Counted from the first letter of the stretch, positions 26,140 to 61,127 are shown. The stretch: DNA of 64,000 nt from an uncultured Clostridia bacterium (GCA_948678575.1 CAPPGO010000001.1:195951-259950), one strand, 5' to 3'. Notes: generated by a model not told the origin, from the sequence alone. Program-made: numbers and translations.

Positions 26140-26177
26140 CAAAAAAGAAACTTCTAGATTTTTTCTAGAAGTTTCTT
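26140..26177 (-). terminator. Rho-independent terminator after the B2 giant gene (14-bp stem AAGAAACTTCTAGA / TCTAGAAGTTTCTT, T5 loop, U-tract)
   Basis: The perfect inverted repeat sits immediately 3' of the stop at 26187 and is followed on the minus strand by TTTTTGCTATTGTTTTTT. Confidence 0.75.
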
Positions 26178-26186
26178 CCATTTAGT

Positions 26187-29100
26187 TTATTTTTTCAAAA
26201 CTGTTTTTTTGATTATTACTATACCTACTGCTAATATTACTAATGCAACTACTGATACAATTAACATTTGAATTGTAAGAGCTGTCTTTGTATTTAAACC
26301 TGTTGGAGGTGTAAATGTGATAAGCTCTGTTGCACTCGCATCTCTTTCATCAAGTGATACTGTGAATTCTCCAAGTTTTGGATCAGCATTACCTGCAATA
26401 GTTTCGATATCTCTCTTACCAACTGTATTTTCAAATTTAACTATTTCAGCGATATTATCATAAGTTAAATCGTCTTCATCAATTTCACTATCAATAGATC
26501 TTGTCATAGTTAAATTCATTAATGTTTCGCAAGATGTATCTAACTCACTATTTTGGTTAGATGCACTAAATGGAACTAATTTAATTATAAAGTCTGGGTT
26601 TGCAAGTTTATCTCCATTTACTCCATCAACACTTAATATCAAGTTACTTCTTTCATTTGTTGAGTATGCAATTCCTCTATCATCTACAATGTTGTTTATT
26701 CCATCATACTCTCCAATGATATTGCTATCTATTGCTTTTGCTTCTAGTAATTCATCAGGTGTTGTAGATTTCCAACTTGTATTTAATTCATTATTTTGGT
26801 CTGCTTTAAATACTGCATCATTATCTACATAATCAATTAATTGTCTTATTGTTGTTGTTACAACTATGTCAGATTGTGTATAAGCTTCATTTTTACCAAT
26901 GTAGTAAATACTTCCTATAAATTCTCCGACTTTTGGATGTTTTACGCTAGTTAATTTTCCATCAACTTTAACGTAAGTTTGATCTTTAATTTCTTCTGCC
27001 TTAGCAAGAAGTTCCTCAGGAGTAGAGTTTTCCACAAATGGATTTGCTCTATCTACTTCACCAATATTCAATACTGTAAATCTGTACTTAACTTCTAGAT
27101 TTAAAGATTGAGCAATTGTATCATCATAATAAATGTATCTGAAATTTTGTAATCCTTCTTCTTCATTTTTATTTTGAGCAAGTAAGTGTTCTGTTCCGAA
27201 AGATTTTTCTTTATTTAATTCTACATTTGCTTTATAGCTTGCTTTTCCTGTATCTTCATCCAATGTATAGTCATAACTAATATCATATACTGCTTTTAGT
27301 ATAGGATCAGTTCCTGTATTTGGTGTAAGTGTTATAGATTCAATTTCTTTATCAAGTACAATTTCTGTATTTGATCTTTCTTCGATACCTATATCTACTG
27401 CTTCAATTACATAATTGTAATTGATATATGTTACAGTACCTTTTGCACCGTTTATATCTGATTTACCATAAACATAGTTTGATGTTATTCCGTTTTGAGT
27501 TTCTTCTCCACCTGCTATAACCTCAGTTTGTTCACCAGTAATTCTATCAGTTATAATTACTTTTTGACCAGCTAAGCTGTTCATATTTTCAATATTCAAA
27601 TTGATTTTTGCTGTATCTGCAAACATACTTGTATTTTTATATAATTCTGTATGATCTGCTGTATAATTATTTGCTGTTGCTAATACTGATGTTATTGTAT
27701 GATCTAACACTCTTGAATATGCCATAACTTCAAGTCTTCTTGATTCGTTATCTATTGCATCTGAGTTATGTGTAATAACTTCACCATTTTCATCATATTT
27801 ACATGTTGTGAAATCATACCATTCGTTATCTATATAACCATCATTATTAGATACATTTGCTGTTTTTCCATCTTCACCTACAATGTCTGCTTGATATGTT
27901 GTTGTTTTGAAGTCTTGACCATTGTAAACTGCTGGATGTCTTGAATTATCATCAGAAGTTTGAGGTTCTGCCACTCCATCTAGTTTTACTAGATTTCCTT
28001 CATCATCTAAACTATCTGATGGAAAATCACCATAAGTAAATCTTACTACATAATTTCCGGCTGGTATATTTGCAAATTTATACATACCAGTATCTTCTGG
28101 TCTATTACTTGTTAATGTAATACTGTCAAATCCTGTAATTTCTTCTAATGTTTTACCATTTAAGAAGTCGAAACTTTGAGCTGTTGGCCATACGAAATCA
28201 TATTCTTTATATGTTTCTGTACCTTCTGGTTGTTTTACTCTAACTTTTTCTACCATTTGAGTAGTTAAGTTTCCAATTAATCTTTCATCATCGTCATAGA
28301 TACCATTACCTACTACTTGATTATAATCAATTTTTTCAGTCTCTTTATCTTCCCAAGCCATACCAGTTACATCTCTTGTCTCTTTATATAAGTCTAATGT
28401 TATGATTGGTGCTGAATCGCAATCATCTTCATACCATTCTTTTGTATTTTTATTTTCGATATCAACATTATTTGCTGCTGAATCTTTATCAATTTTACCA
28501 GCTATTTTTTGAGTATCTGCATAATATGTTGAATATGCTCCAATTTCTGCAACATTAGATTTTGTACCTAATCTTACATAAGATCTTACTGCATCTGATA
28601 ATCCAGATTGATCTCCGAAAACTGCTGGTGCTTCGTCAGTTCTAACTTTAAATGTTAAGTACACTTCAAGTTTTTCACCTACTGCTAATCTGAAATCTTG
28701 ATCACTTAAATCAATTTCAGCTTTATAATATTTTTTACCTTCTTCACTTCTAACTTTTTCAGAAATTTCCATTCCTTCATTGCCAGATGCTTCGGCTACT
28801 GTATCGATTGAACTGTTAACTAAATCTCCTGTTACATTAATTTTTCCTTCAATAGATTTTGTTAATTGTTCTGCCCACATACTATCGCCAGAAGGACCTT
28901 TTTTAATTACATAAGCAGGTGTAGCAACTGTTGTTTCTCTATCAACACTTATGCCATTTGCTTCTTGAATGTATCTTGAAACTGTTGTATCAACTAATTC
29001 TAAGTCTTCATCAAAGTAATCTGTTAATTTCTTAACATCTGCTAGATAAGAATCTGAATTGTTATATACGCCAATCTTATATGTTAAGAATACATCTAAG

Positions 29101-32100: not shown

Positions 32101-33056
32101 TGAGTTGTTGATGGATTTTCTTTTATGAAACTTTCTTCAACATAATCAATTGAGAAAGGTCCTATTGTATATGTGTTTGTATCAGTATCGAATGTAACTG
32201 TTACTTTATCTTTTCCTGTTGCTTTTCCATTTTCATCTTTTTCTACTGTACCATCTTGGTTAGCATCTTCATTATATACTGGGTTATATTCAAGTTCTGG
32301 TGCAGGAACTGTTCCTGTATGAACTTCTCCATCTAATTCGAATTCATAATCTGTATTAACAAAGTCATCTTCATTAATGCTTTTTGCTATTTGTTTAATA
32401 TATCCATAAAAAGCTTCTGCTTCTTCATATAATGCATTTATGGTACTATGGTTTGTACCTTTATTATCATCAGTAACCCACCATGCATACTGTATTGTTG
32501 AGTAGTTGTCTGGATAGAATACTTTTAATCTATCTTCTGGTTCAACTTCTGCAATCATTTCAGCTAATATGTATGAGTTATCAGGACTTGTTACAACTAT
32601 TTCAGTTGCTTCAAACCATGCCCAGCTTTCTGAATTATATTCAGAATCTGTATATGGTGTTTGAGGATTGCTTGAATCTTTTATTGTTAAAGCTGTTTGA
32701 TTTCCTTCATCTGCTTTTGTTAATTCTCCAATTAATTTTCCACTATCTGTTGTTGTAGTAGAACTACCACCAGCAGTTAATGTAGCAGCTGCAACACCTC
32801 TTAAATGTGAATCATTACCACCATGATAACAACAAAGGATGTCATATCTATCAAGTAAATCTTCTAATGTCATATATTGACCTTCGAAGTTTATTGTTTC
32901 AGATGTACCATAAGTTCCTTTTGAATCCATTTCTGTTGAAACTTTTGTTGCATAAGCTGCAACAACGGCAACAGTGCTTAATAATGTAATTATTATTATT
33001 AATGAAACTATTAATCTTTTGTCTAAATCTTTAAATAATTTCTTCATATTAAACAC
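26187..33056 (-). CDS. Giant cell-surface adhesin, B-type (2289 aa): putative N-terminal thioester-like domain, Cys/His-rich insert, multiple Cna-B/SpaA-like domains, SdrD-B-like domains, C-terminal TPPTGLN sorting-signal-like motif plus TM and basic tail
   Basis: The N-terminal signal/TM is followed by conserved ILCCYHGG...STIQYAWW motifs. Repeated modules end in YKVEEVNIPEGAKL, YEVKEINLPDGWEL and YSVSETAMPEGWKQ, which fit the YxVxExxxPxGW pattern. SdrD-B-like domains are present (GVVWEDAPLNEED..., GMAWEDKETEKIDYN...GNYVVRFTYGD). The C-terminus is FTPPTGLNTKT + LIVSVVALVILAVGIVII + KKTVLKK. The start may instead be the ATG at 33047. Confidence 0.7.
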   Translation of the reverse strand: MFNMKKLFKDLDKRLIVSLIIIITLLSTVAVVAAYATKVSTEMDSKGTYGTSETINFEGQYMTLEDLLDRYDILCCYHGGNDSHLRGVAAATLTAGGSSTTTTDSGKLIGELTKADEGNQTALTIKDSSNPQTPYTDSEYNSESWAWFEATEIVVTSPDNSYILAEMIAEVEPEDRLKVFYPDNYSTIQYAWWVTDDNKGTNHSTINALYEEAEAFYGYIKQIAKSINEDDFVNTDYEFELDGEVHTGTVPAPELEYNPVYNEDANQDGTVEKDENGKATGKDKVTVTFDTDTNTYTIGPFSIDYVEESFIKENPSTTQDQRDPVQFAGITNAQLFVKQNGAEIEVPFAIKEDEEGIENPIQEIEGAKWKFNFLKDQRETTDNYRFPHANEVFYIELDYMEGVTELTNLHFDFKYMNAGGRYERLEGTYFEQTWTPNSEVSQYCSGSCGHSSHGEDSTCDGKCSHGYSSKHAIKWNYWLDLTGMKEQTAQMLGYGVIGARWYLYTDLDLNDGPDLDKPGEWSYKINKKVVDKNGNPVTTSDKFVFEVYKNGELFDRVKVPANRTFVSGTYKLAIGEDTPTIEVKEAFEGDIADNYKLKDIQKTIEGENTFVFNVTNTEQPHYGRVHITKHFDEKHKDWEFQFKLYIDNKLFVNDKTTSDGIITIHPGETWDSGDIEYTGDAPRYKVEEVNIPEGAKLYKITNKEGKLGEDVEINAYNTDDGNDWDSAEISIQKVLDGNVTSTESFTVVLEVGGTTYTKTLKAGQTWSDKYVWKKGTTPPKYEVKEINLPDGWELLGIENGSGTLEKDKKISVKVTNKATNPKSGRISITKKIETDDKIGVDNNVEFSFAARISGTFECDGESIVNGTKIINTTLKPNETWTSPEITWLGDAPTYSVSETAMPEGWKQLSISSSNGTILDDKTIEVICTNEYKIITEYDLTMAMSGVVWEDAPLNEEDKNTEDSVANGKYDNGELGIPNVEVFIWKVLYQGQTEVSRVLAKGYEAGSDTEISYPIYTSADGIWEAPRMSVPGLTDEEKASGITRANYDVEFYYDGQTYKPTDFLVSGSASDFRRGNNARRNEYNRDSMAIEDPAEREAFDNKFATITGDTPIYDDGSTDGYAIGTDGGRTDLLYYSTDSIPSLDGNTRKISDLQTLNDGYIREQFRMPARTSTGGLTWPFDNKYHLEYIEKYLNKIESGIIIKYHYSATYPYLLNINLGLVRRDEAELAVTKDVYSANVVVNQKLMNYKYNEYIDFENEEYKDYLNLQLKVADANISYKLDLYESDYYYRAKVYEGNEVRGALEEFYRSIGKDNLSEELDLDVFLTYKIGVYNNSDSYLADVKKLTDYFDEDLELVDTTVSRYIQEANGISVDRETTVATPAYVIKKGPSGDSMWAEQLTKSIEGKINVTGDLVNSSIDTVAEASGNEGMEISEKVRSEEGKKYYKAEIDLSDQDFRLAVGEKLEVYLTFKVRTDEAPAVFGDQSGLSDAVRSYVRLGTKSNVAEIGAYSTYYADTQKIAGKIDKDSAANNVDIENKNTKEWYEDDCDSAPIITLDLYKETRDVTGMAWEDKETEKIDYNQVVGNGIYDDDERLIGNLTTQMVEKVRVKQPEGTETYKEYDFVWPTAQSFDFLNGKTLEEITGFDSITLTSNRPEDTGMYKFANIPAGNYVVRFTYGDFPSDSLDDEGNLVKLDGVAEPQTSDDNSRHPAVYNGQDFKTTTYQADIVGEDGKTANVSNNDGYIDNEWYDFTTCKYDENGEVITHNSDAIDNESRRLEVMAYSRVLDHTITSVLATANNYTADHTELYKNTSMFADTAKINLNIENMNSLAGQKVIITDRITGEQTEVIAGGEETQNGITSNYVYGKSDINGAKGTVTYINYNYVIEAVDIGIEERSNTEIVLDKEIESITLTPNTGTDPILKAVYDISYDYTLDEDTGKASYKANVELNKEKSFGTEHLLAQNKNEEEGLQNFRYIYYDDTIAQSLNLEVKYRFTVLNIGEVDRANPFVENSTPEELLAKAEEIKDQTYVKVDGKLTSVKHPKVGEFIGSIYYIGKNEAYTQSDIVVTTTIRQLIDYVDNDAVFKADQNNELNTSWKSTTPDELLEAKAIDSNIIGEYDGINNIVDDRGIAYSTNERSNLILSVDGVNGDKLANPDFIIKLVPFSASNQNSELDTSCETLMNLTMTRSIDSEIDEDDLTYDNIAEIVKFENTVGKRDIETIAGNADPKLGEFTVSLDERDASATELITFTPPTGLNTKTALTIQMLIVSVVALVILAVGIVIIKKTVLKK

Positions 33057-36000
33057 CTGCCTTTCTTTTTTTCAATATTATTTGCGTGTAAGCTATAAAT
33101 ATAACTATTGATCCTAAGATTACACTTGTTATAATTACTGAGATATAAATGAATACTTCACCAGTTTTTACTGTGATAATAGCATCTGCTGATCCCATAT
33201 CATTTTCACCTTGTGCTTTATTCATTGGTGTAGAGTTTATATCTGATACACCATAAATGTTATAATCTTCTGCAATCTCTGCAATGTTGTTTACGATACC
33301 AGATGTATTTTCTTCTGTCATTTGTTTAGTTAAAACTAATTTTATTTCTCTTGTTTCACCTGGTTTTAATTCTACATCTGCTAATGCTGATGTATATAAA
33401 TTTCCATCTGTACCTGTGTACCAATCTGGATTTAATGTTGAGTTAAATGTCATTCCTGCTGGAATGTAATCAATTATTCTCTTAATATTTCCTGCGATTT
33501 CCCCAACATTTGATACTTTAATACTATATTCAATATATGTTGTTGAACTTGATAAATATTTAGCTGCGATTGGCATTTGTGCTAATGTAACATTATCAAA
33601 TTGTACACTATCTGTGCCTGCTTTATTTTGAACTGTCATTTTTGTAATAGAAGTTTCTAAACTTAAATCAAATGTATCTGCATATACAAAACCTATATCC
33701 ATGTTTGATACACTTGAATCTGCAATTGTAATTCTATCTGTAACAGCTGCATTTCTTTGTCTACCATCTTGTTCAATCTTTGTTGTAATAGCATCAGAGT
33801 TTACATTTGCTTCAACTCCTGCTTTTTGATATGTTGTAACTGTATATTTTACAGTATCATAATCAAATATTACTAAGTAGTTTCCATTTGCAACACCAGC
33901 AAAAGTATAAGCTCCTTTACTATCTGTTGTAATAGATTTTACCACTGTTCCTGTATCAGCATTTACAAGTCTTGCTGTAATTCCTGACATTTTTTGTTCG
34001 TTTTCTGCTCTCATACCATCTTTGTCTTCATCTAACCAAGCATTACCTGTAATTTTATAAGTTTTTACAATGTTTGAATTTGATGCTGAACTACTATTGC
34101 TTGTTGCTCCTGTATTTTGAACAGCTTCTTCAACTACTTGATTTGAATAGTTTGGGTCTGCTTCTATAATATGTGTTATTTCATTTGAAAGCATTGGGCT
34201 TTCCATTGTTTTTGTTTGTATGCTACCTTTATTTGTAACTGTTGCTTCGGCAGCTCCGTCAAGGTTTTTAGCTATTGCTTTAACTGTTGCTTTAAGTTCT
34301 GTATCAACTGGTATACTCACTGTAATTGTTGGTTCTGTTGAACCAGAAACTCTCTTTGTAGATTCTCTTCCATTTATTCCATATGTAATTGATTTTGCAA
34401 GTAAACCTTCTGGTACATAATCTATTAAGCTAACATCTTGTGCTTCAAAAGAACCTTCATTTTTTATTGTAAATACATATTCAATTGTTTCACCCTCAGT
34501 TACATAAGTATCTGTTGTATTTGTTGTTTGTGTAAATACTAAACTTGGTCTACCAATTCCTAAACTAATTTCATTTGATGTAACTGCATCTACACCATCA
34601 GCTTTGGCATTTGCTGTTACTGTTACAACTTTATATGTTGAACCATTATCTAGTTCTTTTGTTATTACAAATATTTGAGCTTGTGCTGTTGTTTTTGATT
34701 TTAATGTTCCTACATTTACTGTAACTGTTCTTGTACTATCATCATAATTAACTACTGCTCCATTTTTACCTGTTGTTGGTGTTGATGATGCTTCAAGTAA
34801 AAATCCTTCTTTGTATGAAACTTCATCTGGAAGTTTAAATTCTATTACAGCATTTTGTAAATCTTCATTTGAAAGATTTGTTGCTGTTATATCATATTTA
34901 ACTTCACGATTTTCAGCAATTGTTGTATTTTCTTCTGTAAAGTTATGTCCTATTTCTACTTTAAGAACTGTTTTTTCTATTGCAATATTAACTGGTTCTG
35001 AAACAACTGGCTCTTCTAAATCATCAGCTGTTGCTGTTGCTGTTATGCTAACATCTTTTTCTTCCCCTGCTCTTGCTGAAAGAACAAATCTTAATTCTTT
35101 TACTTCATCAACTCCTAGTGTAGGAATTGTGAATTCTATTATTCCATTTTCACTACTTGATGTAATTCCTTCTTCAACTGGAATATCTTCTATAACAAAT
35201 CCATTATCTACTGGAATTGTTATTTTTACATTTTGTGCAGAAGTTTTTCCTGTATTTTTTACTTCTACTTTATATGTCATTTCTTCATATTCTTTAATAG
35301 ATGTTTCTACATCAGAAGAAAGTTTGATTGAAAGTTCTGGACCTTCACCTGTACTTAAACCGATTTTATCAGCTTTACTTTCTTCATCAACTGTTGCTAC
35401 ATCTGTATGATTTTTGTAGTATGCTAAAAATGTACCATAAATACTTTCATTTAATTTCAAGTCTGCTGGAATTTTATATTCATAAGTAAATCTTAAAACT
35501 TCAGCAACTAACATTTGATAATTACTATCAGTTGGAACTATTAAATAAGATTTAATATTGTCAAAGTTTTCTACTTCTGTTGTCCAACCATTTGAACTAT
35601 CATTTAGGTCTTTTGTTGCTTCTCCGTTTTCAGAATAATAAATTGTAAAGTTTGTATTATTCTTTTCATCTGCAACTATTCTTGATACTAATGTTGTATC
35701 TATTGTTGTTCCTAAATCTTCACCTGTTTTTATATCTTTAACACCTTTAAAAGGTATTCTTCCTAATATACTTAAATCAGAAACTATATTGTTATTATTG
35801 TTCATAACTATAATTTCCATTGTTGCAACCTTTTCAACATCATTCTTGGCTATTTCAGCTTCCTTTTCACCTTGTTTAATAGATGTTAAAACTGTTCCTG
35901 CAAAATCGAAGTTGCTTGTACTATTTACTGTTACTAATCCTGTTGGTGCAGAATAGTAAATTGGTAATTGTGTTAATCCACCATCTACATAACTTGTATA

Positions 36001-38154: not shown

Positions 38155-38395
38155 AAATTCATCCTCCTAACAAACTTTTTGACATAGTATGACTCTATTA
38201 TCATATATACTATATTTTACTACACTTAAAGTTCAAGTCAATAGCTTAAACCTTTGTGTTTCATAACTTTTACAAACATTCCCTTAAAGTATTTACGGAA
38301 ACTAACTTCATAAAAATTATATGTTAAAATATAAAATTTTTATTACATTTAATTTCGTTAAAAATGGCTTATTTGTAAAAGCCTACTCAATATTT

Positions 38396-38424
38396 ATTAT
38401 ACCAATTTATGTAAAGTTTTTCAA
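38396..38424 (-). promoter_or_regulatory. Strong putative sigma-A promoter for the A2-B2 module (-35 TTGAAA, 17-nt spacer, -10 TATAAT)
   Basis: The minus strand reads ggTTGAAAaactttacataaattggTATAATaaatattgag. This implies a 5' leader of about 235 nt before the A2 ATG at 38154, whose RBS is AGGAGGA. Confidence 0.55.
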
Positions 38425-38526
38425 CCTTTTTTGTGGTTTTTTAATATTTTTTTGATTTTTTTTGGCTATTTTAGGGAACTTAGCAACTTTTTTTGTCTGA
38501 TTGAACATTTTTTGTGTTTTTTAGAC

Positions 38527-38560
38527 AAAAAACGACCCACAAATTTTTTACAATTTGTGG
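38527..38560 (-). terminator. Rho-independent terminator after the B1 giant gene (stem CCACAAATT / AATTTGTGG, followed on the minus strand by GTCGTTTTTTGTC)
   Basis: A 9-bp perfect stem with a 6-nt loop sits 20 nt 3' of the B1 stop and is followed by a U6 tract. Confidence 0.7.
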
Positions 38561-38577
38561 ATCATTTTTATAAGAAT

Positions 38578-44500: not shown

Positions 44501-46746
44501 TCTCTCAATTCTTTTGGATTAGTTGAATCATTTTTATCGCCTCTTACATTTACCATATTACCCATTGAATGAGCTCCATGTGTAGCTTCATGATCCCAAA
44601 CACTATATTTCATATGTTCTGTTGTATCATTTCTAGTTAAAAATGCAATTATATTTGTATATATACCTTGATCTTTAACTGGTCTTACTTTGATTTCATA
44701 TTTTATCTCACTATGTGCATTTACTGTTATAGCTGAGCTATTTCTTATAGATGCATCAATTTGAGTAACTGTACAAGTATTTTTATCTATTACAGTTCTA
44801 GTAACTTGTGTTATTCCAGCACCTATGTCTCCTGGTAACACGTCTCCAACTTTTACAACTGTTGGAAATCTAGAATCATTTTTCAATTCTATTGTAAAAG
44901 TAACTTCGTCTCCTCTTTCAACTTTAACTGAATTGTTATATTTATCTCGCATTGCATCTTCACGCAATTTATCGCCTTCCATATCACGTCTTTCAGTTCC
45001 ACCATTATATAAGTTTATTGCTTCTCCTACATGGTCTACATTTGAAATATACTTATAAATTGACATTTGTGTTTTCATTGGTACTGAAACTCTAATTTTA
45101 TAAGTTCTAAGTTCGTTACTTAATATACCTCCACCAGCGAAACCATCTTGTGCAGCATCTGCACCACTTGTTGGATTTTCCCAAGTGAATTTCCAACAAT
45201 CTTTATGTCCATGTCTACATAGATAATCAACAGTATGTGTAGTACTATGAAATGTACCATGATGGTGTACAGTATATGTATATGTGTATGTACTTCCATC
45301 TGCATTAGTTCCTGTTCCTGTTTCTGTTGTATCCCAACATCCAGAATACCAAGTATGTGTACAAGTTCCATGATATGGTGCACTTGTAGTACCTGGTGAT
45401 GTATTTGCTGAACATCCTGATGCTGGACTTGGACAAGAATAAGATGTACATCCTCTTTGATTACTTTTTTCTTTCCAACTTAATCTATATTGATATCCTC
45501 TATATACAGTACCATTAGCTGATACGTGAATTCTTTGATATGTAAATATAATATCTAATAATTCATCATAACCTTTTACTTCACCTTCACTAAATTGAAT
45601 GTTAAAGTTCAAGTCTGGTTCTATATCTTTTTGTCCTCCACCATTTGCACCAACAAGTTTTTTTGTAATATCAATTGTTTTTTCTGCACCAGATTCATTT
45701 GTAAGTACAGCTTCTACTTTGATAATATCTCCTTTTAAATCATCTGCTGTTCCAAATATATCTTGTAAAGTTGCAGTATCATAAGATGCTGATGAACCAT
45801 CATCTCCTGCGACCTCATGATCATCATCTCCACCTGGTTCTCCAATTGATGAACCATCTACATTAACTCTTGGACAATCATAATCTTTTGCTCTAACATA
45901 ATGACTCATTTGAAATGGTCCTACAATTAAATTACCTCCTGATAATGTTGTACCAACATTATCAGCTGGAATAACGTCTATTTTTGGATCTTCTGATTCT
46001 TGGTGATATTTATAATATTGCTCACCTTGATATTTTAATTTATTAGTTGCTGAACCTCCTAAGTTAATCCAACTATCCCATACTGCTGATTGTAAAGGAT
46101 CTGATGAATAAGAACCTCTTGTATATAAGTTATTTGGTCCACCTGATTTATAGCATGCAAGCAAAAATGCAAGTGATGCCCTTTCTTCTCCTTCTTCACA
46201 ATTAAATGCAATATCTTGTGATGTATAATACCAGTTTGTATATACTGTATCTGTTGGATTCTCCGTTTTTTCTCTATGACCTTGATAAACTTTTGATGAA
46301 GTTTTTAAAGCTGGATTTGCATAATAGTCTGCACTTGTATCTAAATCTGCTGTCATACTTGTTGCATAAGTACTTAAATTTCCTTTTGAGTAATTCCATT
46401 TATTTTTAGTAACTGTATATGTACCAGGATCATGATATCCATTACCTAATACATTATTCTTTTTTCCACCATATTCTACACCATGTTGCGCACAGAAATA
46501 ATCTTTATTAGAATTAAATACATATTTATCAATAGGAAATCTTCCTATTCTTGTATATGGTGCTGTCTGTGGTGTAAATGCCTTTTTAACTTGCATTTCA
46601 ATTGATTTTCCACCTACTAATGTAGTTTCTGGTTCTTGTTTTTTATCAAAAAGGGCATATGATTCATTAGATAATAATATAATTCCATATAAGGAAGTAG
46701 AAATTATGATACTAGCTAACAAAATACTTATTATAAATTTTTTCAT
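38578..46746 (-). CDS. Giant cell-surface adhesin, B-type (2722 aa), paralog of 26187..33056: putative thioester-like N-terminal domain, large Cys/His-rich insert, Cna-B-like and SdrD-B-like domains, TPPTGLN motif plus TM and KRRIK tail
   Basis: It has a signal peptide and the conserved YFCAQHGVEYGG...DPLQSAVWDSW motifs. The Cys/His-rich block is RGCTSYSCPSPASGCS...HGTCTHTWYSGCW...VHHHGTFHSTTHTVDYLCRHGHKDCW. SdrD-B-like domains are present (GKVWLDRDKDGYMGQNGNG..., GYVWDDARSETATDEDG...GEYIVRFTYGD). The C-terminus is LTPPTGLNRINR...VVVIIVVALACVAVTVGITLY + HKRRIK. A strong RBS AAGGAGGAG precedes the ATG. Confidence 0.7.
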   Translation of the reverse strand: MKKFIISILLASIIISTSLYGIILLSNESYALFDKKQEPETTLVGGKSIEMQVKKAFTPQTAPYTRIGRFPIDKYVFNSNKDYFCAQHGVEYGGKKNNVLGNGYHDPGTYTVTKNKWNYSKGNLSTYATSMTADLDTSADYYANPALKTSSKVYQGHREKTENPTDTVYTNWYYTSQDIAFNCEEGEERASLAFLLACYKSGGPNNLYTRGSYSSDPLQSAVWDSWINLGGSATNKLKYQGEQYYKYHQESEDPKIDVIPADNVGTTLSGGNLIVGPFQMSHYVRAKDYDCPRVNVDGSSIGEPGGDDDHEVAGDDGSSASYDTATLQDIFGTADDLKGDIIKVEAVLTNESGAEKTIDITKKLVGANGGGQKDIEPDLNFNIQFSEGEVKGYDELLDIIFTYQRIHVSANGTVYRGYQYRLSWKEKSNQRGCTSYSCPSPASGCSANTSPGTTSAPYHGTCTHTWYSGCWDTTETGTGTNADGSTYTYTYTVHHHGTFHSTTHTVDYLCRHGHKDCWKFTWENPTSGADAAQDGFAGGGILSNELRTYKIRVSVPMKTQMSIYKYISNVDHVGEAINLYNGGTERRDMEGDKLREDAMRDKYNNSVKVERGDEVTFTIELKNDSRFPTVVKVGDVLPGDIGAGITQVTRTVIDKNTCTVTQIDASIRNSSAITVNAHSEIKYEIKVRPVKDQGIYTNIIAFLTRNDTTEHMKYSVWDHEATHGAHSMGNMVNVRGDKNDSTNPKELRDWDSDTYEIKEFNVGFEKYIYDVEHDKEHIVPTSLDTTMPASDERSAKNGTTEAQKKANPVYAEYGDVVTYKIIAYNTMDSTGSRFDIQGSTRDGKPYWEPDKVYVNIEDKLPNKFSRLKIEVENTGITGNDSHTISAPEASMSGGKIKIDNLMIPAGGTRTITITLVVEEHQKGVIEENNAKLDKKIKNINRGPGKSSNVNDKYCVIKNNAPGDNLITSDFYIINDYELTLDKYISDYKHEMTDFNNSNDFTNETNTLSDRYEMTEEQKKNAPLQAEKNETIIYSIRLTNDAKTVGGSMTSAIKRATQVRPTKIQDAMDAGLEYQGVAVNVYKADGSVKFANVPVTHEDIGNNTHTFEMGNKYGSECLILDPTDYIIYEITVKVTKTNMYLYSLENTGTIRTLTDINHDEFTREVKNDEYNENIADQQVSKEYVKLKDLVIAGKVWLDRDKDGYMGQNGNGNLEVNGNAIDVETNPSTHIDDTTGKEFAMKGIVVKLYKDDGTLVRTTKTDGNGLFTFSRLEDGSTYYAGAYKADGSGVTESEQRVDKATNKDPNKNYTELSELINYYVEYEYDGLVYKSTEIYSDNKNIGVEGEIDDKYKRDSNAYEFTDVREEFNKHYEIVAFNKAYNGDLTEENALEYEKSNHESYIRVNKDRKITARSFINVPSNSSIANTKLLWLLKQTSSDYKPETEYLKYINLGLEEREDVDLDITQDVYELKTTINGEEMTYEYNQNKFTSKVGEVFADESRNAAKAIDKEHSTDEYNSEFYMTGYKDDTSGIESNRKLYSFEYYLEDYNYRISQYHIDTVRAYKGSPDRDFNANAVDGGASILLDNSVGRESELNTEITFRIKVTNNSITDDEPHKSEGKDIKVYTGINEIVEYYDTDFVDLTFNNDGSIRGFNVKEKDAHDYLVNKEIKVLSAKAVMGNGQEKPVTLTKESAYNAERTLQDGGMKLYDTLYIRPAVENTSTNVLTGQGIKASEFMLAEGESMDILITFVVEKELENPDIKEIETILGIKENVAEISSYSTYYKDGENYKSASLIDKDSNPNNFGETYESVSNVDSSEYLKFFEDDTFKTGILLKVPSPPPPDTPPPQGEDPEYKYKYNVQRTLKGYVWDDARSETATDEDGTQYIGNGKYGDGVSALEDARKNKAFEQSDGSNKEENDFSAKDVKAQLIEVIKMPDPENAGVERVYEDTIYVNGETGEDASVMKTRTAADGTYMFNGYIPGEYIVRFTYGDKEADEDINALSEERFIFNGQDYKSTTYQPNESVYAENAQANGDKTPGDVKLEILEKAGQSDAKDDEIRRLEVIGYSETVTNQKNEILKGKYSSDKIALLGQTYMNSETTDFLVRTEKEIRKVTILTYKEYNKKVTETITEARFNIANIDFGLQYRPEQQLALNKYISNITILTSDTNNANSSEPLVDAIFDEYYGVVRNTDFVTGATTFITDAEGNTIKVDPNGSNSDIENAVATGGGNIGEAQKNNDGTYVIAVAGTELNVNKSVGLQNVQYLPNEYEKDSNGMQALEEYPRGSGKYLVKATQGFAYIVLDDNILQGATIKVKYLFTGTNISEVDRVSSNLSDLRFKENTETEKYAKLGGTQNQVYDEVTYQVSDINNKPTFINHNYSPALTARNAMFSEYYRYELEGGNIKKDLTNKDILYRVKVKDLLANNDKVVEIADIQKAPNAGNPHSGTTGYYGRYLGSTYYTGKINDAMEVIAELKIDKILDYVDNDLVFNNDENRGENNLWKTTTTKELYDANMLNKFTYTYYDSNGKPVTDNTTTEDYKLVDADGRAYDTAERSNLALSLDDRVRDDLPADQDTTVNKKFSRFLFPRYADSNESIGIISLATSKVLSPEDKTDDMTYENIAEIIQYSSVTGRVTNLATTIGNAKIEEISNESPEFHEGRTESDTASVEKVTLTPPTGLNRINRVVRDVVKGASYTVVVIIVVALACVAVTVGITLYHKRRIK

Positions 46747-46759
46747 AAACTTCTCCTCC

Positions 46760-49700
46760 TTACTTATAGAATTTTTTTAAACTAATTTTTTTATTTTTTG
46801 CTTTATACACTTTATCAAAATGTATATCTATTGGTAATTTTTGATTATATCCAAGTCCTGCAAGAACTCCTATTATGAATATAATAATTATTACATTTCT
46901 TAATGTTCTACCTGTTGACACTGTGATGATTGTATTTTGAACACTAATATTATTATCTGCTTTTTCTGATTCCGCTGAATTAGATAAAGCTTTTAGTATT
47001 TCTACTTTATTAGAAATTGTACCCGTATTTTCATTTGTCATTGTCTTTGTTAAGTTTATCTTGTACTCTTTCTTTTGTCCTGGATTTAAAGTTGTTTGAT
47101 TTATATTTTTCATATAAATATATCCATCATTTCCTTTATACCAGTCTTTATTTTGATTTTCATCAAATTCGATATCTGTACCAATGTAATCCACTACTTG
47201 CTCAGCATATCCTTCTAAACTACCTTTATTTTCTAATGTAATTGTATATTCTAATTCTACCTTAGCACCTTTTAATTGCTTTGAATGAATGTCTATTTTT
47301 GCTAAATCTACATTATTGTAATTATATTCTTTTGTACCTTTTTTAGTTGTTACTTTTGCTTTACTTAAATATTTAGTAATTTGTAAATCAAAAGTATCTC
47401 TACTTTGTAAACCAATATCAATATTTTCAATATTAGCATTTTCTACTGTTATTGTATTTGAAATTGCATTCATATCATCTGCATTACTTTCAATAACATC
47501 AGAATTTCTATCTTCTCCAACATCTGCTTTCTTATAAATTGTAGTTGTGTATAATTTATTATCATAAACAAATGCTACAATGTATTTTCCATTTTCTACA
47601 TCGTTAAAAATATATCCACCATTGCTATCTGTTGTTGTAGATTTAAGCATAGAGTGTCCAACCGTTAATAAATATACTTTTATTGAAGCTAAAGCTTTTT
47701 CATCATCTTCTCTTGCTCCATTCTTATTTGTATCTAACCATGCTCTACCTTTTATACTATATTTTTGAACTTCTACTGGCTCACTTGGATTATTATTTTC
47801 TTCTGGTTGTGTAGGCGTATTTGGTTCATTTGGTGTTAAATTGTTATTATTATTGCTATTATTGTTATTATTGTTACTATTATCTGGGTTTTGATTTACA
47901 TTGTCATTATCATTATTTGTATTATTATCATTATTGGCATTATCTTCTTGCTCTTGTCGTTTTTGTTCTTCTTCATATTCTTTATTTAAGTTATCAATTC
48001 TATCTTGCTCTTTTTCTTCTTCTGTTTTCTCTGTATTCAATACTGTAAATTCAAAAGGATCTATATTTATATCTTCTTGATTATCTGCTGTTATTTTTCT
48101 GTTTAATATAACTTTAATAGTATCGATTCCAGACATGTTTTTAGCTTTTAATGTCATATCAACAGTCATGCTTTCATTTGCTTTTATAATTGGTAACTTG
48201 GCATCTATTTTTCCTGTTCCATCTCCTGTTGATAAAGTACTTCCATTAGAACATTTTATTTCTCTAACATCCATGTTATTTGGAACATCACATTGGAATT
48301 TACCACTAGTTACATTAGTTAATCCCATATTTGTTATTGTTGTTGAAATAACAATAGTTTCATTTTCTTTAATTTGTGACAATTTATTTACTGTGCTGTC
48401 TTTTGCATCAATCATTCCTCTAATTACACTTTGATTTACAGGTGTACTATACTCATAATTTGCCATATCCTCTGATTTTATTTGGAATTGACAATTATAT
48501 TCTTCTTTTGATTTACTAATTTTTTTTGCAATTACTTCTGTTGTTATAACAGTTGTTTCACCCTTTTTCATTTCTGGTATTTTAAAATATATTTTTCCAT
48601 CATTTGGACTAAATGTAATATCTCCATCTGCTCCATTAATTTTTCCTGATGAAAATTCATAAACTTTTCCTACATTGAAAATTGCTTCAACATTTTTTAA
48701 ATCTCTATTAGAAATATTTTGTACATTTAATGTAAAGTTTGTTGGTGTACCTGGTTCTAAAACTCTATCATAATCCAAAGTTATATTTGTATCAAAATTT
48801 GCATATTGCAACTTATTTTTTATTTCATTTGTTTCTATACTATTTGCTAACGTATCACTAGTAACAGTTGCTTTATTTGTTATGTATATATCAGGAACTT
48901 CTGTTATATATTTTTTCTCAAATATTGGTTCTTGAATTATTACTTTTTCTTCGTTTTCATATTTTGTATTCTCATCACCAGATTGTGGTGGTACTTCTAC
49001 ATCTTTATATCCAACAACTTCTTCTATATAATATCCATTTTCGTCTTTTCCTGTTGCATAAGATTCAAGAGTAGGTTTTCTATTTGTTCTTACATAATAA
49101 TCAAATGTTTTTGTTTCTCCTGCTTTTAATACAGGAATATTAAATTCCATTTCTTTTTTAGTAGAATCCAATACAAAACTATAATCACCAACATAACATC
49201 TACCATCTTTTACTGTATATGTTGTGTATTCTGGAATTGGTGCTTTTACATTAATATTTTGTATATCAATACTTCCACTATTTACAACTGTTACTGTATA
49301 TTTCATTCTTTTTTCAGATAAAATATCAGCTCCATCTCCAATGTCTACACTTAGATTTGCTTCGATTTTTGGTCCAGCTTCTGTTACTAAACCTACTAAA
49401 TCTGCTTTTGTACTTTCATATACAACTGCTAAATCTGTATGATTATTATAATATGCTCCAAATGAACCATACATTTCTACTTCATAAGGTAAGTTAGCTG
49501 GTATTTGGAAATTATAACTAAACTTAAATAATGTTCCAGCTTTAACTGTACTAGTTGGTACAATTAAATAAGATTTTACTTGACTCATATCTTCTGGTGT
49601 TTTTGTCCAACCATTTGCGCCATTACTTAAAGATATATCAGCTTTTGGATTATATGAATAATATATATCGCATCCAATTGGATTAATATCTGATTGAAGA

Positions 49701-52552
49701 ATTCCACTAACCATAAATGTATTTCTATTAGTTCCAATTGTTTTACCTGTTATAACATCTGTTGCTTCTGTATTTGGTACTCTACCTAACATTGCAACAT
49801 CTGTACAATCATTTCCTGTATTATTTAATGCTGCAAGTGTCATTGTAACATCTCTTGTAAGTGTTCCCATTTCAGCTTTGGCTGTTACTTCACCTTGTTT
49901 TATTGTTTCAATTGTACTTCCCATTCCATCATAATTTTCAATACCATTTGCTGTAATAAAACCTGATGGTGCTTGGAATGAAAATACTTCAATATCAAAA
50001 CCATTTGTTGTTTTAATTATTCCATCTGGAATACCACTTGAAATTTTCCAATCTGTTTGTGATTGATAATTTGTTACACCTTGATTGAAATAATACATTT
50101 TTAATTGATCATCTTTCTTTGGTGTATAATCATCAACTACTATTTTTGTATTTACTATAATATTTGTACCATTTGTAATTTCACTTGTACTAAATTCTCT
50201 TTGAACACCCTCTAATTGAATTTTCATTCTTTGAACGTTATTTGCATCTTTGAAAAGTGAAATGTTTTTAACTGTTAATCCTTCTTCATATAAAAGATTT
50301 ACTGATTTTACTTCAACATCTCTTATATAAGATGGAAATACAATTTCGAATTCTGGATTTATATATAAATCACTTTTATCAGTATTATTATTAAGTTCAA
50401 TTTTTAATTCAACATTTTCGTTATCTGCTATTGTAGATAATTGTGTTGTATTCATTGAAATTTCAGCTTTTGTATAGCTTTTTTCAAAATATTTTTCTGC
50501 TTTTAATGGTGTAAGTTCAATAACTTCATCAGAAGTTCCATATTTTACTTGTGCTTTTACTCTACTTTCTATTTTTTCAAAATTATTAAATGTAGCTTTT
50601 TCATAAGCACATTTTCCAATTGATTTAACAAAATCAACTGTTATTGTTCCATTAACTTTAATATCTTTTACAGATATTTCTACACCATGTATATCTCCAT
50701 TTAGTACTAATTCACAATCTTCTTGTGAACTAACTATGCTAGCATTTAATGTATGTAAAACTTCTCCTGTACTTGATTTAATTTCTATTGTTCCGCCTTG
50801 ATTTAATATTTCTGCTATCTCAGCATATTTGAATTTTACTTCTTTATATAATACATCTTGCGCTTCAAATTCTAAGTTTGTCTTATCTATATAATATTCT
50901 TTTGTATCTTTTAATGTAAATTCTTTTAAAATATCATTTGTAAGAATATTTATACTAACTGTTGAAGTAAATTCTGTATCATATACAGCTTCAACTGAAT
51001 TATAGTTAGCATTAATTTTTCCTTTGCTTATTAAATCTTCTGTTGTTCCTATTGAATATGTAATAAGTTCTCCAATATTTACAATTGTTTTCTTTTCTCC
51101 TGAGAAATCTTTTGTTATTATATTATTTTCTTTTCCGCTAAATTCTTCAACTGTTACTTTTCCTTTTAAGTCAACTGAAATTTCTTGACTTTCTACATAT
51201 TCATCGTATCTATATACAATTACATATATATCTTCGCCACTTGTTAAAACAGCATTATTGTTTTCAACTTTTATAGTTATGGTATTTTTATCTGCATTAT
51301 ATTCCCAATTATCACTAGAAAAAGTAATTTCATTAATTTCTTCACCTGATGTTGCTTTTAATTTTGTTGCGCGCACATCTAAAGTTATAGGTGATTTTCC
51401 ATTAATTAATGGAGCTTCAAACTCTATAACTGTTTCTTTTAATGGTAAATAATTTTCCTCTGTACAATCTCTATTTACAACTATTTTGCTTTCAACCAAA
51501 GTTCCTTTTGTTCCTTCAACTTCAAAAGGTGAAACTTTTGTAATTTCAGTTGAAACATTTATGTCTTTTGAATAAGTCCATTCAGTTGTTATTTTATCTG
51601 TACTAGAAACTTCTACTTCTTCTAGATCTTCATTTATATAAGTACCAAACAAGTCCAAATTTGTTTGTTTATATAAGTCTGATACATTTAATGTTTCACC
51701 AGCTTTATAAGCTAATTTAACATAAATCTTTGTATTTTCTGCTACATTTTCTACCAATATTTCATTATCACTATTAATCTTTGCACTTATTGCTGAAACG
51801 GGTATAACGTCATTATTTTCTTTTTGTTTAGCTTCGTCTTCATATACTTTATCTTCATCAACTAATACATCTTCTTGTTCTTGATTATCCACTGTTTTTC
51901 CGTCAGTTGGAATAATGTTTTCAGCCGCTTGTCCGTCGGCAGGTTCCATATCTTGAACATTTGTATTATCTGATGTTACAGTATTAGCATTATCAACAAC
52001 TGCTGTATTTTCTTCATTTTCTACTACATTATTTGTAACGTCATTTGCTATTTCATTTGCAATAGTGTTTTCTGATGATGTTGTATTTTCATTTGTTGGT
52101 AAAGTCAATTCTACTTCTGGTAAATCAGCATTTACAACTTGTCCTGTTTGCAAAAGAGTTTCTTCAAGTTGAACAGCTTGTTCTAATGTATCCTCCTTCT
52201 TTTCGTTATTTGATGATAAATTCAAAATTTCTTCGAATTTAAAATTGGGCTCTCCTTCATCAGTAACAGCTTTTATTGTTCCAGTTTTCAAATAACCAAT
52301 TTCTTTTGGTTCTAACTCTAAAATCAATGTCATTTTGCCATTAACATCTGCTTGCATTTCATTTTTTTCTTTTCCATTTTCATCTAAGAAATAAGCCTTG
52401 TATGAAAGATTATTCTTACCAAAAAGTGAAAAACCAAAAAGCGATATGCCATCACTTGTTGCCAATGCTTGCAAAGTTAAACCACAATTTGAAAATGTGA
52501 TAACAAATACTATTGCCATTACTAAGATTTTCCTAAGTACTTTGTTTTCCAT
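46760..52552 (-). CDS. Giant cell-surface protein, A-type (1930 aa), paralog of 33049..38154: DUF11-like repeats, Asn/Asp-rich low-complexity tracts, SdrD-B-like domain, ITVSTG motif plus TM and long basic tail
   Basis: It shares blocks with A2 (ELNNNTD.SD.Y...EFEI..P.Y..DVEV, NGTNI..NT.I.VD.Y.P, KSYLIVPT). The SdrD-B-like region is GRAWLDTNKNGAREDDE...TDSNGGYIFNDVENGKYIVAFVYD. The C-terminus is ITVSTGRTLRNVIIIIFIIGVLAGLGY plus a KKISLKKFYK-type basic tail. Confidence 0.7.
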   Translation of the reverse strand: MENKVLRKILVMAIVFVITFSNCGLTLQALATSDGISLFGFSLFGKNNLSYKAYFLDENGKEKNEMQADVNGKMTLILELEPKEIGYLKTGTIKAVTDEGEPNFKFEEILNLSSNNEKKEDTLEQAVQLEETLLQTGQVVNADLPEVELTLPTNENTTSSENTIANEIANDVTNNVVENEENTAVVDNANTVTSDNTNVQDMEPADGQAAENIIPTDGKTVDNQEQEDVLVDEDKVYEDEAKQKENNDVIPVSAISAKINSDNEILVENVAENTKIYVKLAYKAGETLNVSDLYKQTNLDLFGTYINEDLEEVEVSSTDKITTEWTYSKDINVSTEITKVSPFEVEGTKGTLVESKIVVNRDCTEENYLPLKETVIEFEAPLINGKSPITLDVRATKLKATSGEEINEITFSSDNWEYNADKNTITIKVENNNAVLTSGEDIYVIVYRYDEYVESQEISVDLKGKVTVEEFSGKENNIITKDFSGEKKTIVNIGELITYSIGTTEDLISKGKINANYNSVEAVYDTEFTSTVSINILTNDILKEFTLKDTKEYYIDKTNLEFEAQDVLYKEVKFKYAEIAEILNQGGTIEIKSSTGEVLHTLNASIVSSQEDCELVLNGDIHGVEISVKDIKVNGTITVDFVKSIGKCAYEKATFNNFEKIESRVKAQVKYGTSDEVIELTPLKAEKYFEKSYTKAEISMNTTQLSTIADNENVELKIELNNNTDKSDLYINPEFEIVFPSYIRDVEVKSVNLLYEEGLTVKNISLFKDANNVQRMKIQLEGVQREFSTSEITNGTNIIVNTKIVVDDYTPKKDDQLKMYYFNQGVTNYQSQTDWKISSGIPDGIIKTTNGFDIEVFSFQAPSGFITANGIENYDGMGSTIETIKQGEVTAKAEMGTLTRDVTMTLAALNNTGNDCTDVAMLGRVPNTEATDVITGKTIGTNRNTFMVSGILQSDINPIGCDIYYSYNPKADISLSNGANGWTKTPEDMSQVKSYLIVPTSTVKAGTLFKFSYNFQIPANLPYEVEMYGSFGAYYNNHTDLAVVYESTKADLVGLVTEAGPKIEANLSVDIGDGADILSEKRMKYTVTVVNSGSIDIQNINVKAPIPEYTTYTVKDGRCYVGDYSFVLDSTKKEMEFNIPVLKAGETKTFDYYVRTNRKPTLESYATGKDENGYYIEEVVGYKDVEVPPQSGDENTKYENEEKVIIQEPIFEKKYITEVPDIYITNKATVTSDTLANSIETNEIKNKLQYANFDTNITLDYDRVLEPGTPTNFTLNVQNISNRDLKNVEAIFNVGKVYEFSSGKINGADGDITFSPNDGKIYFKIPEMKKGETTVITTEVIAKKISKSKEEYNCQFQIKSEDMANYEYSTPVNQSVIRGMIDAKDSTVNKLSQIKENETIVISTTITNMGLTNVTSGKFQCDVPNNMDVREIKCSNGSTLSTGDGTGKIDAKLPIIKANESMTVDMTLKAKNMSGIDTIKVILNRKITADNQEDINIDPFEFTVLNTEKTEEEKEQDRIDNLNKEYEEEQKRQEQEDNANNDNNTNNDNDNVNQNPDNSNNNNNNSNNNNNLTPNEPNTPTQPEENNNPSEPVEVQKYSIKGRAWLDTNKNGAREDDEKALASIKVYLLTVGHSMLKSTTTDSNGGYIFNDVENGKYIVAFVYDNKLYTTTIYKKADVGEDRNSDVIESNADDMNAISNTITVENANIENIDIGLQSRDTFDLQITKYLSKAKVTTKKGTKEYNYNNVDLAKIDIHSKQLKGAKVELEYTITLENKGSLEGYAEQVVDYIGTDIEFDENQNKDWYKGNDGYIYMKNINQTTLNPGQKKEYKINLTKTMTNENTGTISNKVEILKALSNSAESEKADNNISVQNTIITVSTGRTLRNVIIIIFIIGVLAGLGYNQKLPIDIHFDKVYKAKNKKISLKKFYK

Positions 52553-52928
52553 AACTTTTTCCCTTTCTGCCGTTTTGGCGCAATACTGCTTAAATTATTA
52601 TATATATTATATTACGCTTTAATTTTTTTTTTGTACATAGGGAAAAATTCCCAATTTTCAATTGTTACAGAGATTTTGACACAAAAAAATTACGGAAATA
52701 AAGGCTTCAAAATCAATTTTTCACTATATTAAATTTTCATTACTTTTTTGAAAAGTATCTGACATAAAACCATAAATTACTATTTTTTTATGAAAAAGTG
52801 ATAAAAATTTCTTAAAACAAGCAACCGTGCTAAAATAAAAAGAAGAACATAGTCAACATTCTTCTCATTAAAAAGTATAAATATTAAACATAAAATTATT
52901 ACGGCATCAAGCTTTTCTTCCAAATAAG

Positions 52929-53243: not shown

Positions 53244-53252
53244 AAAACCTCC

Positions 53253-53378: not shown

Positions 53379-53605
53379 AGGTTACCTCCTTTTTTATATA
53401 ATTATATGCACAACATACTTAATTGTTTACTAAATAAAAAATAATCATAGGCTAATTTTTAACTCATATGCTTTAAATATAAGTTTGCAATCGCACGAAT
53501 ATATATAACTTAACCTTGTTATTCCGAAAAATTTTAACTAACTTTCATACATAATAAAAAAGAAGCATTTGTATATACATTAATGCTTCTTTTTTTATTT
53601 AATTT

Positions 53606-61112: not shown

Positions 61113-61127
61113 TATTCATTCCTCCTT

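Follow-up and report, generated by a model that had tools for sequence, protein, structure and literature searches.

Tandem two-gene operons for giant, C-terminally anchored and probably fibrillar surface proteins in a lineage of uncultured gut Clostridia

What is encoded by four consecutive giant genes that fill about 26 kb of the chromosome of an uncultured Clostridia bacterium, and do they belong together? The genes lie in a stretch of 64,000 nt (GCA_948678575.1 CAPPGO010000001.1:195951-259950), here called the window, from whose first letter all positions are counted. An original prediction, made from the sequence alone, had placed four co-oriented giant open reading frames (ORFs) there. 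All four are present at the positions then given, on the minus strand: A1, B1, A2 and B2 are consecutive, co-oriented and intact, fill 26187-52552, and are arranged as two A-B pairs. On balance, the locus is best read as two anciently duplicated two-gene operons with which a lineage of uncultured gut Clostridia makes giant, C-terminally anchored, Sec-exported fibrillar surface proteins that most likely serve as adhesins.

Gene A1 (46760..52552, minus strand) encodes a protein of 1930 amino acids (aa; 216 kDa, isoelectric point (pI) 4.6) and B1 (38578..46746, minus) one of 2722 aa (305 kDa). The A2 product (33049..38154, minus) has 1701 aa and contains no Cys, and that of B2 (26187..33056, minus) has 2289 aa when read from GTG 33056 or 2286 aa when read from ATG 33047. 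All four proteins are acidic (pI 4.3-4.8) and range from 187 to 305 kDa. The window is AT-rich (22-34% GC), with nearly every gene on the minus strand, and uninterrupted frames of 5-8 kb at about 29% GC cannot be due to chance. An assembly artefact of repeats, a concern raised with the original prediction, was ruled out: long DNA tandem repeats were not detected in the window, and dozens of independent assemblies carry these genes intact.

The junctions within the pairs read as described earlier, that is, as a 13-bp gap with a ribosome-binding site and an 8-bp overlap. At the A1-B1 junction (46747..46762, minus), the TAA of A1 overlaps an AGGAGG Shine-Dalgarno sequence, followed after 13 nt by the ATG of B1. 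At the A2-B2 junction (33045..33056, minus), the ATG of B2 lies 1 nt past the TAA of A2, or else its GTG overlaps A2 by 8 nt. The ATG at 33047 is the more likely start and is the choice of gene callers on other assemblies. Across orthologous loci, the A1-B1 gap measures 13-15 nt and the A2-B2 gap of 1 nt is kept; a stop-to-start spacing of 1-15 nt within pairs is maintained across genera. Translational coupling of this kind would yield A and B in roughly equimolar amounts.

Homology between the pairs confirmed the two-module layout. A1 is homologous to and collinear with A2, with 31% identity over ~910 aa and 37% in the C-terminal ~330 aa (E 2e-112). The homology of B1 to B2 covers the C-terminal ~1300 aa (24-32% identity, E 2e-31), at 24% across ~1000 aa and 32% in the last ~280 aa. 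Conserved N-terminal Cys and QxAxW motifs, which had been proposed for the B proteins, were indeed common to both, but the N-terminal halves showed no similarity detectable by BLAST beyond such motifs. Between A and B, only the SdrD-B-like stretches are held in common.

The pairing extends well beyond this genome. The exact A2 protein was found on contigs in 214 blocks of a public assembly collection, with B1- and B2-type genes on its two sides in every case, and a word-indexed search gave 17 homologs of B1, all of 2100-2950 aa and all from metagenome-assembled genomes (MAGs) named 'Clostridia bacterium'. Scanning 185,579 species genomes yielded six with a B1-type head; all six belong to uncultured Clostridia, from sources that include water-deer caecum and Hadza gut, and PBP2-A1-B1-A2 synteny was present in each. 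At least seven genomes of related, uncultured Clostridia from the gut share the order PBP2-minC-A1-B1-A2-B2-spoIIE. Loci L004 and L006/L007 have minC-A1-B1-A2-B2 (B1 identity 58% and 36%), in L008 spoIIE comes after an A-B pair, and coupling and synteny are conserved in L009-L016. Locus L005 holds a single A-B pair, amid MucBP giant genes and away from the mre and min genes. Pairing in related Clostridia, which had been put forward as a check, is thus seen both as a tandem pair of pairs and, in L005, as one pair.

Orthologs were closer than paralogs in every case (for example, A1 of L014 is 40% identical to A1 and 29% to A2), from which it follows that the duplication predates these species, as the earlier suggestion of an old duplication had it. 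In evolutionary terms, A and B form a genuine unit, a coherent and conserved two-gene module, and the locus is an ancestral, syntenic, lineage-specific chromosomal locus. The label 'island' used previously is misleading. The four genes have a GC content of 0.27-0.33, equal to that of their flanks, no integrase or transposase was found among window ORFs of at least 150 aa, and the site is likewise occupied in every relative; a horizontally acquired island was ruled out on these grounds.

Two of the related loci carry further peculiarities. In L008 (1-3756), the B1-type gene is broken into ORFs of 1815 and 382 aa, the latter ending in ISPPTGLTQ and a stop codon, with neither TM helix nor tail; this is apparently a decaying or truncated copy beside an intact A2-B2-type pair. 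In L005 (1-27398), the A-B pair lies between two MucBP-repeat giants of ~2800 aa each and a 1595-aa SpaA-domain protein, together forming a surface-protein gene cluster.

Export and anchoring were examined at the two ends of the proteins. By inspection, all four N-termini resemble signal peptides: a basic n-region leads into ~20 hydrophobic aa and then an AxA-like site (ALA-TS, SYA-L, ALA-TS and AYA-T), and the homologs are alike. A C-terminal hydrophobic helix with a Lys/Arg tail is present in all four proteins and all homologs. In B1, TPPTG (38716..38730, minus; aa 2673-2677) is followed by ~17 polar residues, a transmembrane (TM) helix and HKRRIK, with its B2 counterpart at 26298-26312. In A1, ITVSTG (46910..46927, minus; aa 1876-1881) stands directly before the TM helix, the A2 counterpart being ITVKTG at 33160-33177. 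The anchors predicted earlier (TPPTGLN and ITV[KS]TG) were therefore recovered, with helix and basic tail, in all four. Family-wide, the motif is LTPPTG in B and [IL]T[VI][SK]TG in A, and the T-G dipeptide is invariant. The first of the two MucBP giants of L005, which is unrelated, ends in TPATG, a TM helix and KKRKIKK, and this suggests a lineage-specific TPxTG sorting signal. SrtB of C. difficile cuts (S/P)PXTG, and NVQTG was not cleaved in vitro (PMC4155245). A literature search for TPPTG or TPxTG sorting motifs gave nothing relevant.

Domain searches with DUF11, SdrD_B and CnaB-type models, recommended with the original prediction, gave matches in the stalks. The layout of A1 comprises the signal peptide, a family-specific N-terminal region of ~1050 aa, a weak DUF11/CLIPPER match (TIGR01451, E 0.003), an Asn-rich linker, SdrD_B (aa 1602-1714), a terminal immunoglobulin-like (Ig-like) domain, ITVSTG, the TM helix and a conserved basic tail. 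In A2, the signal peptide and an A-family N-terminal region of ~940 aa are followed by three DUF11/CLIPPER stretches (E 7e-15), SdrD_B (aa 1371-1460), a terminal domain, ITVKTG, the TM helix and a basic tail. SdrD_B matched with E 2e-15 in A1 and 3.5e-14 in A2, and the SdrD structure in the PDB with E 2e-14 and 1e-9, respectively; the terminal domain of the A proteins is DUF11-like. Of the features formerly assigned to the A proteins, SdrD_B and the C-terminal motif thus hold for both, and the DUF11-type repeats are strong in A2 but weak in A1. DUF11, recently renamed CLIPPER, has been shown to resemble CnaA, to contain an isopeptide bond and to serve as a stalk domain in fibrillar adhesins (PMC12617251). 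Searches with the A N-terminal region gave 27 homologs, none of them annotated.

B1 consists of the signal peptide, a head with the Cys and Gln motifs, DUF7927/DUF11-like domains (weak matches), a core of ~1300 aa shared with B2 that holds two SdrD_B-like domains, TPPTG, the TM helix and a basic tail. In B2, a head with ILCCYHG, IQYAWW and a short Cys/His insert precedes three or four CnaB-type domains (DUF7601, E 4.4e-8; also DUF5979 and SpaA), the B core, TPPTG, the TM helix and a basic tail. YxVxExxxPxGW repeats of the CnaB-like type had been attributed to both B proteins; three copies were found in B2 and none in B1. Likewise, SdrD_B matched B1 (E 4.9e-9) as expected, but B2 only weakly. 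The core is made up of two SdrD-B-like domains with large inserts and ~950 aa of unmatched sequence.

The stalk domain types of the four proteins (CLIPPER/DUF11, SdrD-B and CnaB-type) are known from Gram-positive adhesins. On the reading of the locus as fibrillar adhesins, isopeptide bonds and Ca2+ probably stiffen the stalks, which would hold the N-terminal regions at a distance of tens of nanometres from the wall. Several observations pull the other way. No known adhesive domain was detected by Pfam, NCBIfam or PDB searches in the ~1000 N-terminal aa of A or in the B head; the ~900-1050 N-terminal aa of A matched neither Pfam nor PDB even with a 13-sequence profile, the B core has no Pfam or PDB match beyond its SdrD-B-like domains, and the NCBI annotation is 'hypothetical protein'. 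At the C-terminus, 10-17 polar residues separate the B motif from the TM helix, an unusual spacing in a sortase signal, the A motif lies directly before the helix and lacks Pro, the cytoplasmic tail of A1 is conserved ([IL]DxxFxKVYK...KKFYK), and curated NCBIfam sorting-signal models matched none of the four C-termini. As the original prediction had also reported, no sortase is encoded nearby: neither a sortase nor a pilus-assembly protein was found among ORFs of at least 150 aa in the 64-kb window, nor was either among the called genes of the related loci fetched. The missing Pro and the conserved A1 tail favour permanent membrane anchoring. The proteins would either be kept in the membrane or be moved to peptidoglycan by a housekeeping sortase that is encoded elsewhere and reads TPxTG.

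A tip adhesin plus shaft had been suggested for the pair. Stated fully, B would be the tip of a sortase-assembled heteromeric fibre, with the threonine of its TPPTG linked covalently to an A lysine, and A would be the wall-anchored shaft or base. The strictly conserved A-B pairing and coupling and the x-T-G, TM helix and basic tail on both proteins agree with such a fibre, and the B head has thioester-like motifs, like the pilus tip adhesin Cpa (PMC6194298). However, no class C or other sortase accompanies the genes in the window or the related loci, and the YPKN-type pilin motif was found in none of the four proteins (regular expression [WYF]PK[NHDG], a crude one). The proteins have several times the size of pilins, each has its own signal peptide and C-terminal TM anchor, and a conserved A1 cytoplasmic tail is what would be expected if the protein were retained. 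A fibre of this type is considered very improbable, and the suggestion was not kept.

If the proteins are adhesins, the B head would be the binding end, and its motifs raise the question of a thioester domain. Three motifs define such domains, namely [YFL]CΦζ, whose Cys forms the bond, TQxxΦW, situated on helix α2, and a weak ΦQζΦΦ, which supplies the bonding Gln, and in class II a beta-sandwich is inserted before the Gln hairpin (PMC6194298). The head of B1 (44992..46746, minus; aa 1-585) contains Cys85 (FFCAQHG, 46492-46494), Gln219 and Trp223 (PLQSAVW), VGPF, Gln404 (FTYQRIH) and Gln533 (AAQDGF); 11 of the 15 Cys of B1 fall within its first 520 residues, i.e. in the head. The Cys and QxAxW noticed at the outset correspond, by motif only, to the thioester-domain motifs. 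A profile of the B head retrieved 31 clusters among 1.84 billion representative proteins, all of them giant proteins or their fragments and none annotated, and a word-indexed search with the head alignment gave two proteins only.

Among 18 head sequences with 17-53% identity, just one Cys (Cys85 of B1), one Gln (Gln219) and a Gly-Pro are invariant, and one Tyr, the Trp of the Gln motif and the Phe after Gly-Pro (GPF) are nearly so. The invariant Cys lies in a [YFL]C motif (FFCAQ in B1, ILCCY in B2). The Gln lies in QxAΦW (LQSAVW in B1, IQYAWW in B2), which falls in the second of three predicted helices and in which the Thr of TQxxΦW is not conserved. B1-type heads also have an invariant FTYQRIH (Gln404) after the predicted beta-sandwich and an invariant AQDG (Gln533). 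In class II references from plasmids (the pLS20 TIE and six relatives), the bond-forming Gln is found in SYQRLM or NYQRLN. An AlphaFold2 (AF2) model of the head (predicted local distance difference test score, pLDDT, 68; predicted template modelling score, pTM, 0.62) consists of strands, three helices, a beta-sandwich and a long hairpin that carries FTYQRIH in the B1 type; a model of an isolated 250-aa head segment (pLDDT 50) was not used. A cysteine protease or transglutaminase was ruled out for the head, as neither His nor Asp is invariant alongside the Cys.

These features describe a head that is thioester-like by motif and topology, although membership of the thioester domains is not established, and with a confidence just under even, covalent ligand capture is the favoured mechanism. 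The order of [FYL]C, QxAΦW and, in the B1 type, YQRIH would be that of class II domains, and B would then be a candidate covalent (thioester-type) adhesin with A as its partner protein. An alternative that we hold in about equal regard is that the head is no thioester domain, and that the invariant Cys, Gln and Trp belong to another, undescribed domain, for instance a metal-binding or enzymatic module around the Cys/His insert, with non-covalent binding. All model and profile-profile tests against thioester domains were negative, which speaks for this alternative and against covalent capture. Pfam TED (PF08341), whose use had been proposed earlier, and NCBIfam TQXA gave no match at E up to 10 in both heads and 18 family members, and a PDB profile search with the head found nothing. 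In hhalign, comparison with a 7-sequence class II profile gave a probability <1%, with only the FC motif aligned to the thioester Cys, so that membership at the sequence level is rejected. Structural matches were likewise insignificant (in Foldseek, 6fwv ranked 4-5 with E 0.04), the spacing from Cys to QxAΦW is 96-275 residues compared with about 55 from the Cys to the Gln motif in the solved domain of EfmTIE86 (PMC6194298), and B2-type heads lack a Gln at the YQR position.

The Cys/His-rich insert bears on both views. In B1, it spans 45187..45450 (minus; aa 433-520) with seven Cys, at 433, 438, 445, 462, 470, 510 and 517, and aa 456-535 (80 aa) contain four Cys and nine His. Its clusters are conserved in the B1 type, as C-x-H...C and C-x-H-x-H-xx-C patterns, which favours the non-thioester alternative. 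The insert is, however, a variable-length loop inside a predicted beta-hairpin, ranges from 0 to >150 residues and is absent from several B-family members, so it cannot be the core function of the head. It had formerly been listed as a common B feature; the insert itself is real, but some orthologs lack it. The loop is therefore accessory, and possibly a metal-binding knob. Also in favour of thioester chemistry, Cys and Gln are the sole invariant polar residues in a family diverging to 17% identity, and the two motifs that hold them are among those by which thioester domains are defined and come in the expected order, with three predicted helices between.

Alleles were compared between the window and the conspecific strain of L015, in which the flanks and most of A1 and B1 are 98-99% identical and A2 is 100% identical at the protein level. 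Two hypervariable segments stand out. The first (44497..46746, minus) covers aa 1-750 of B1, with 16-64% identity to the conspecific allele, the other ~1970 aa being ~100% identical. The second (47603..49405, minus) covers aa ~1050-1650 of A1, i.e. the CLIPPER-like region and the linker, with 16-62% identity, next to an N-terminal 1050 aa that is ~100% identical. The A1 and B1 alleles of the window are absent from a collection of 15 billion proteins. Such sharply bounded replacement fits exposed regions under diversifying selection by ligand, antibody or phage.

This variation also bears on a structural role, in which the proteins would form envelope or cell-cell fibres, as a membrane-anchored coat or as links in chains or aggregates, and would be a core lineage trait tied to morphogenesis genes. 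The fixed site between mreBCD-PBP2-minC and spoIIE in all relatives, the invariance of the ~1050-aa N-terminal region of A1 between strains, the conserved A1 cytoplasmic tail and the failure of the sortase signal models are in keeping with it. Gene neighbourhood alone is weak evidence, however, and in L005 the same pair is found away from mre and min, among MucBP adhesin genes. The CLIPPER, SdrD-B and CnaB stalks are typical of adhesins, and the replacement of the B1 head between strains fits ligand or immune selection better. Structural fibres are accordingly seen as rather unlikely, and the proteins continue to be read as adhesins.

A bolder proposal would make the locus an undescribed two-component fibre system confined to this one lineage. 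B would carry a thioester domain of a third structural class, in which a ~550-aa head includes a beta-sandwich insertion and a Cys/His knob that is hypervariable and may bind Zn. A would be its obligate stoichiometric partner, as co-fibre, base or covalent target of the B thioester, and a new signal (TPxTG, [IV][SK]TG) and cassette swapping of the exposed parts would complete the system. Taken as a whole, this proposal is unlikely.

Giant surface proteins are probably the main means of attachment of uncultured gut Firmicutes, whether to mucus, to food particles, to host cells or to one another, and almost none from Clostridia known through MAGs only has been characterised. This lineage spends ~26 kb on four of them, in an arrangement kept across species and with a strict A-B coupling that is unusual for fibrillar adhesins. 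If the head is of the thioester type, covalent adhesion would extend to a very divergent class missed by current models, and the head would be a candidate for covalent protein 'glues'. As a natural experiment, the strain-to-strain exchange of the B1 head and the A1 CLIPPER region points to the parts meeting ligands, antibodies or phages.

Expression signals were sought between and around the pairs. The B1/A2 spacer (38155..38577, minus; 423 bp) contains a hairpin at 38537-38560 with a 9-bp stem and a T-run, and two promoter-like sites, TTGAAA-17-TATAAT at 38424..38396 (11/12 matches) and TTGACT-16-TAAAAT at 38241..38214 (10/12 matches); the latter is kept upstream of A2-type genes. The terminator and sigma-A-type promoter assumed between the pairs are therefore represented by candidate elements, identified by consensus match only. 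Within 38366-38424 (minus), the distal TTGAAA-17-TATAAT site is almost immediately followed by a short hairpin and T-run (GGCTTTTACAAATAAGCC ATTTTT), and a similar hairpin with other stem bases is found in L006; it could be a putative attenuator or mark a small transcript. In the region upstream of A1 (52553..52830, minus), a consensus scan gave no convincing sigma-70 site. After B2, a strong terminator-like hairpin of the intrinsic type (26143..26179, minus) has a 16-bp stem and a T-run.

In an alignment of eight A-upstream regions, two motifs, AAATGTAATAAAAAYTTWATA at about -200 and TTTCCGTAA at about -147, recur ahead of all A genes, whether of the A1 or the A2 type, throughout the genomes examined. 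Upstream of A1, TTTCCGTAA lies at 52690-52698 (about -147), and the B1/A2 spacer contains the conserved motifs AATGTAATAAAAA at 38337-38349 and TTTCCGTAA at 38293-38301. The window has three copies of TTTCCGTAA, compared with 0.15 expected; the third is inverted, at 60799-60807, ~130 nt upstream of an M23 peptidase gene. RNAalifold detected no conserved RNA structure in the eight regions, which makes TTTCCGTAA and AAATGTAATAAAAAYTTWATA probably protein-binding sites common to both operons, perhaps for one transcription factor. A search of Rfam over 25.9-53.7 kb gave no riboswitch, leader or cyclic di-GMP (c-di-GMP) element.

The four genes are preceded by mreB, mreC, mreD, a PBP2-type transpeptidase gene and minC, and are followed by genes for SpoIIE, a WG-repeat protein, holo-ACP synthase, TatD, a leucine-rich-repeat (LRR) protein with dockerin, LemA and others. 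No minD or minE follows minC; instead, a terminator and then short ORFs of 41, 104 and 50 aa lie between it and A1 (52780-54211, minus), and Pfam gave no match for these three. Those of 41 and 104 aa are kept in conspecific strains (L015), and L004 has a 117-aa ORF there. The LRR protein (15162-19376, minus; 1404 aa) ends in a type I dockerin, which implies a cohesin-dockerin surface display system in the organism. The TatD DNase gene (19624-20390, minus) is frameshifted: ORF 19624-20238 matches profile positions 59-253 only, and the N-terminus (ATG 20387, MEFFDSHAHY...) lies in another frame; TatD of L008 is intact, with 255 aa. A comM/yifB-like Mg-chelatase gene (9658-11271, minus) is split into two same-frame ORFs by TAA 10531-10533, and the break translates as AAGRT, a stop and LSFNSEIRGSGKTM at the place of the expected P-loop (GPPGSGKT). 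This suggests two nearby compensating frameshifts, either in a pseudogene or as indel errors. Stop-codon reassignment was ruled out for this split, as the giant ORFs are uninterrupted and the local comM sequence looks frame-shifted. Upstream of the M23 peptidase gene, in a neighbourhood rich in morphogenesis and sporulation genes, lie two small ORFs (60870-61320, minus): the 80-aa ORF is spore-coat-protein-F-like (Coat_F, E 1e-15), and the 62-aa ORF matches Coat_F weakly (E 0.03) and best DUF2383 (E 2e-4, below threshold).

How does the locus relate to systems already described? In sortase-assembled pili (S. pyogenes Cpa-FctA), adjacent genes encode a thioester-type tip protein, to which the thioester-like B would correspond, and a second surface protein with Ig-like domains, but here the pilin-specific sortase and pilin motif are missing, the size is much larger and both proteins have complete anchors. 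The C. difficile SrtB substrates CD2831, CD3246 and CbpA share the use of non-LPXTG signals, (S/P)PXTG resembling TPPTG of B and the proposed NVQTG of CbpA resembling T[VI][SK]TG of A. They differ in that the B motif is 10-17 polar residues away from the TM helix, and neither a c-di-GMP riboswitch nor another Rfam element lies upstream here. With the staphylococcal Sdr proteins, the locus has in common the Ca2+-dependent SdrD_B stalk domains near the wall-proximal end; it departs from them in having one or two B domains per protein, with large insertions in B, and no SD-repeat, N2-N3 region or LPXTG.

The CLIPPER (DUF11) fibrillar adhesins (PMC12617251) come closer on the A side, with DUF11/CLIPPER domains in the mid-stalk of A2, and weakly of A1 and B1, combined with a signal peptide and C-terminal anchor. 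In contrast to them, the N-terminal 900-1050 aa of A match no known domain, and the CLIPPER region of A1 is strain-variable. For B, the nearest relatives in design are the thioester-isopeptide-ester (TIE) surface adhesins, above all those whose thioester domains are of class II (BaTIE, EfmTIE86, SaTIE and TIEpLS20), which likewise have a signal peptide, a head with [YFL]C and QxxΦW, a beta-sandwich (predicted in B) inserted before the Gln hairpin, a CnaB/CnaA-type stalk and an x-T-G, TM helix and basic tail, and which gave the best, though weak, fold matches to the B head. Yet the B head has no Pfam, NCBIfam, PDB or hhalign similarity to them, and the B2 type lacks a candidate bond-forming Gln. 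The B proteins are also three to five times longer, with a ~550-aa head that carries a variable Cys/His insert, TPPTG instead of LPXTG, and a constant coupling to a second giant gene. Rather than a new kind of system, the locus is a lineage-specific variant of the familiar fibrillar-adhesin/TIE theme, with two unannotated families, obligate pairing and a divergent head.

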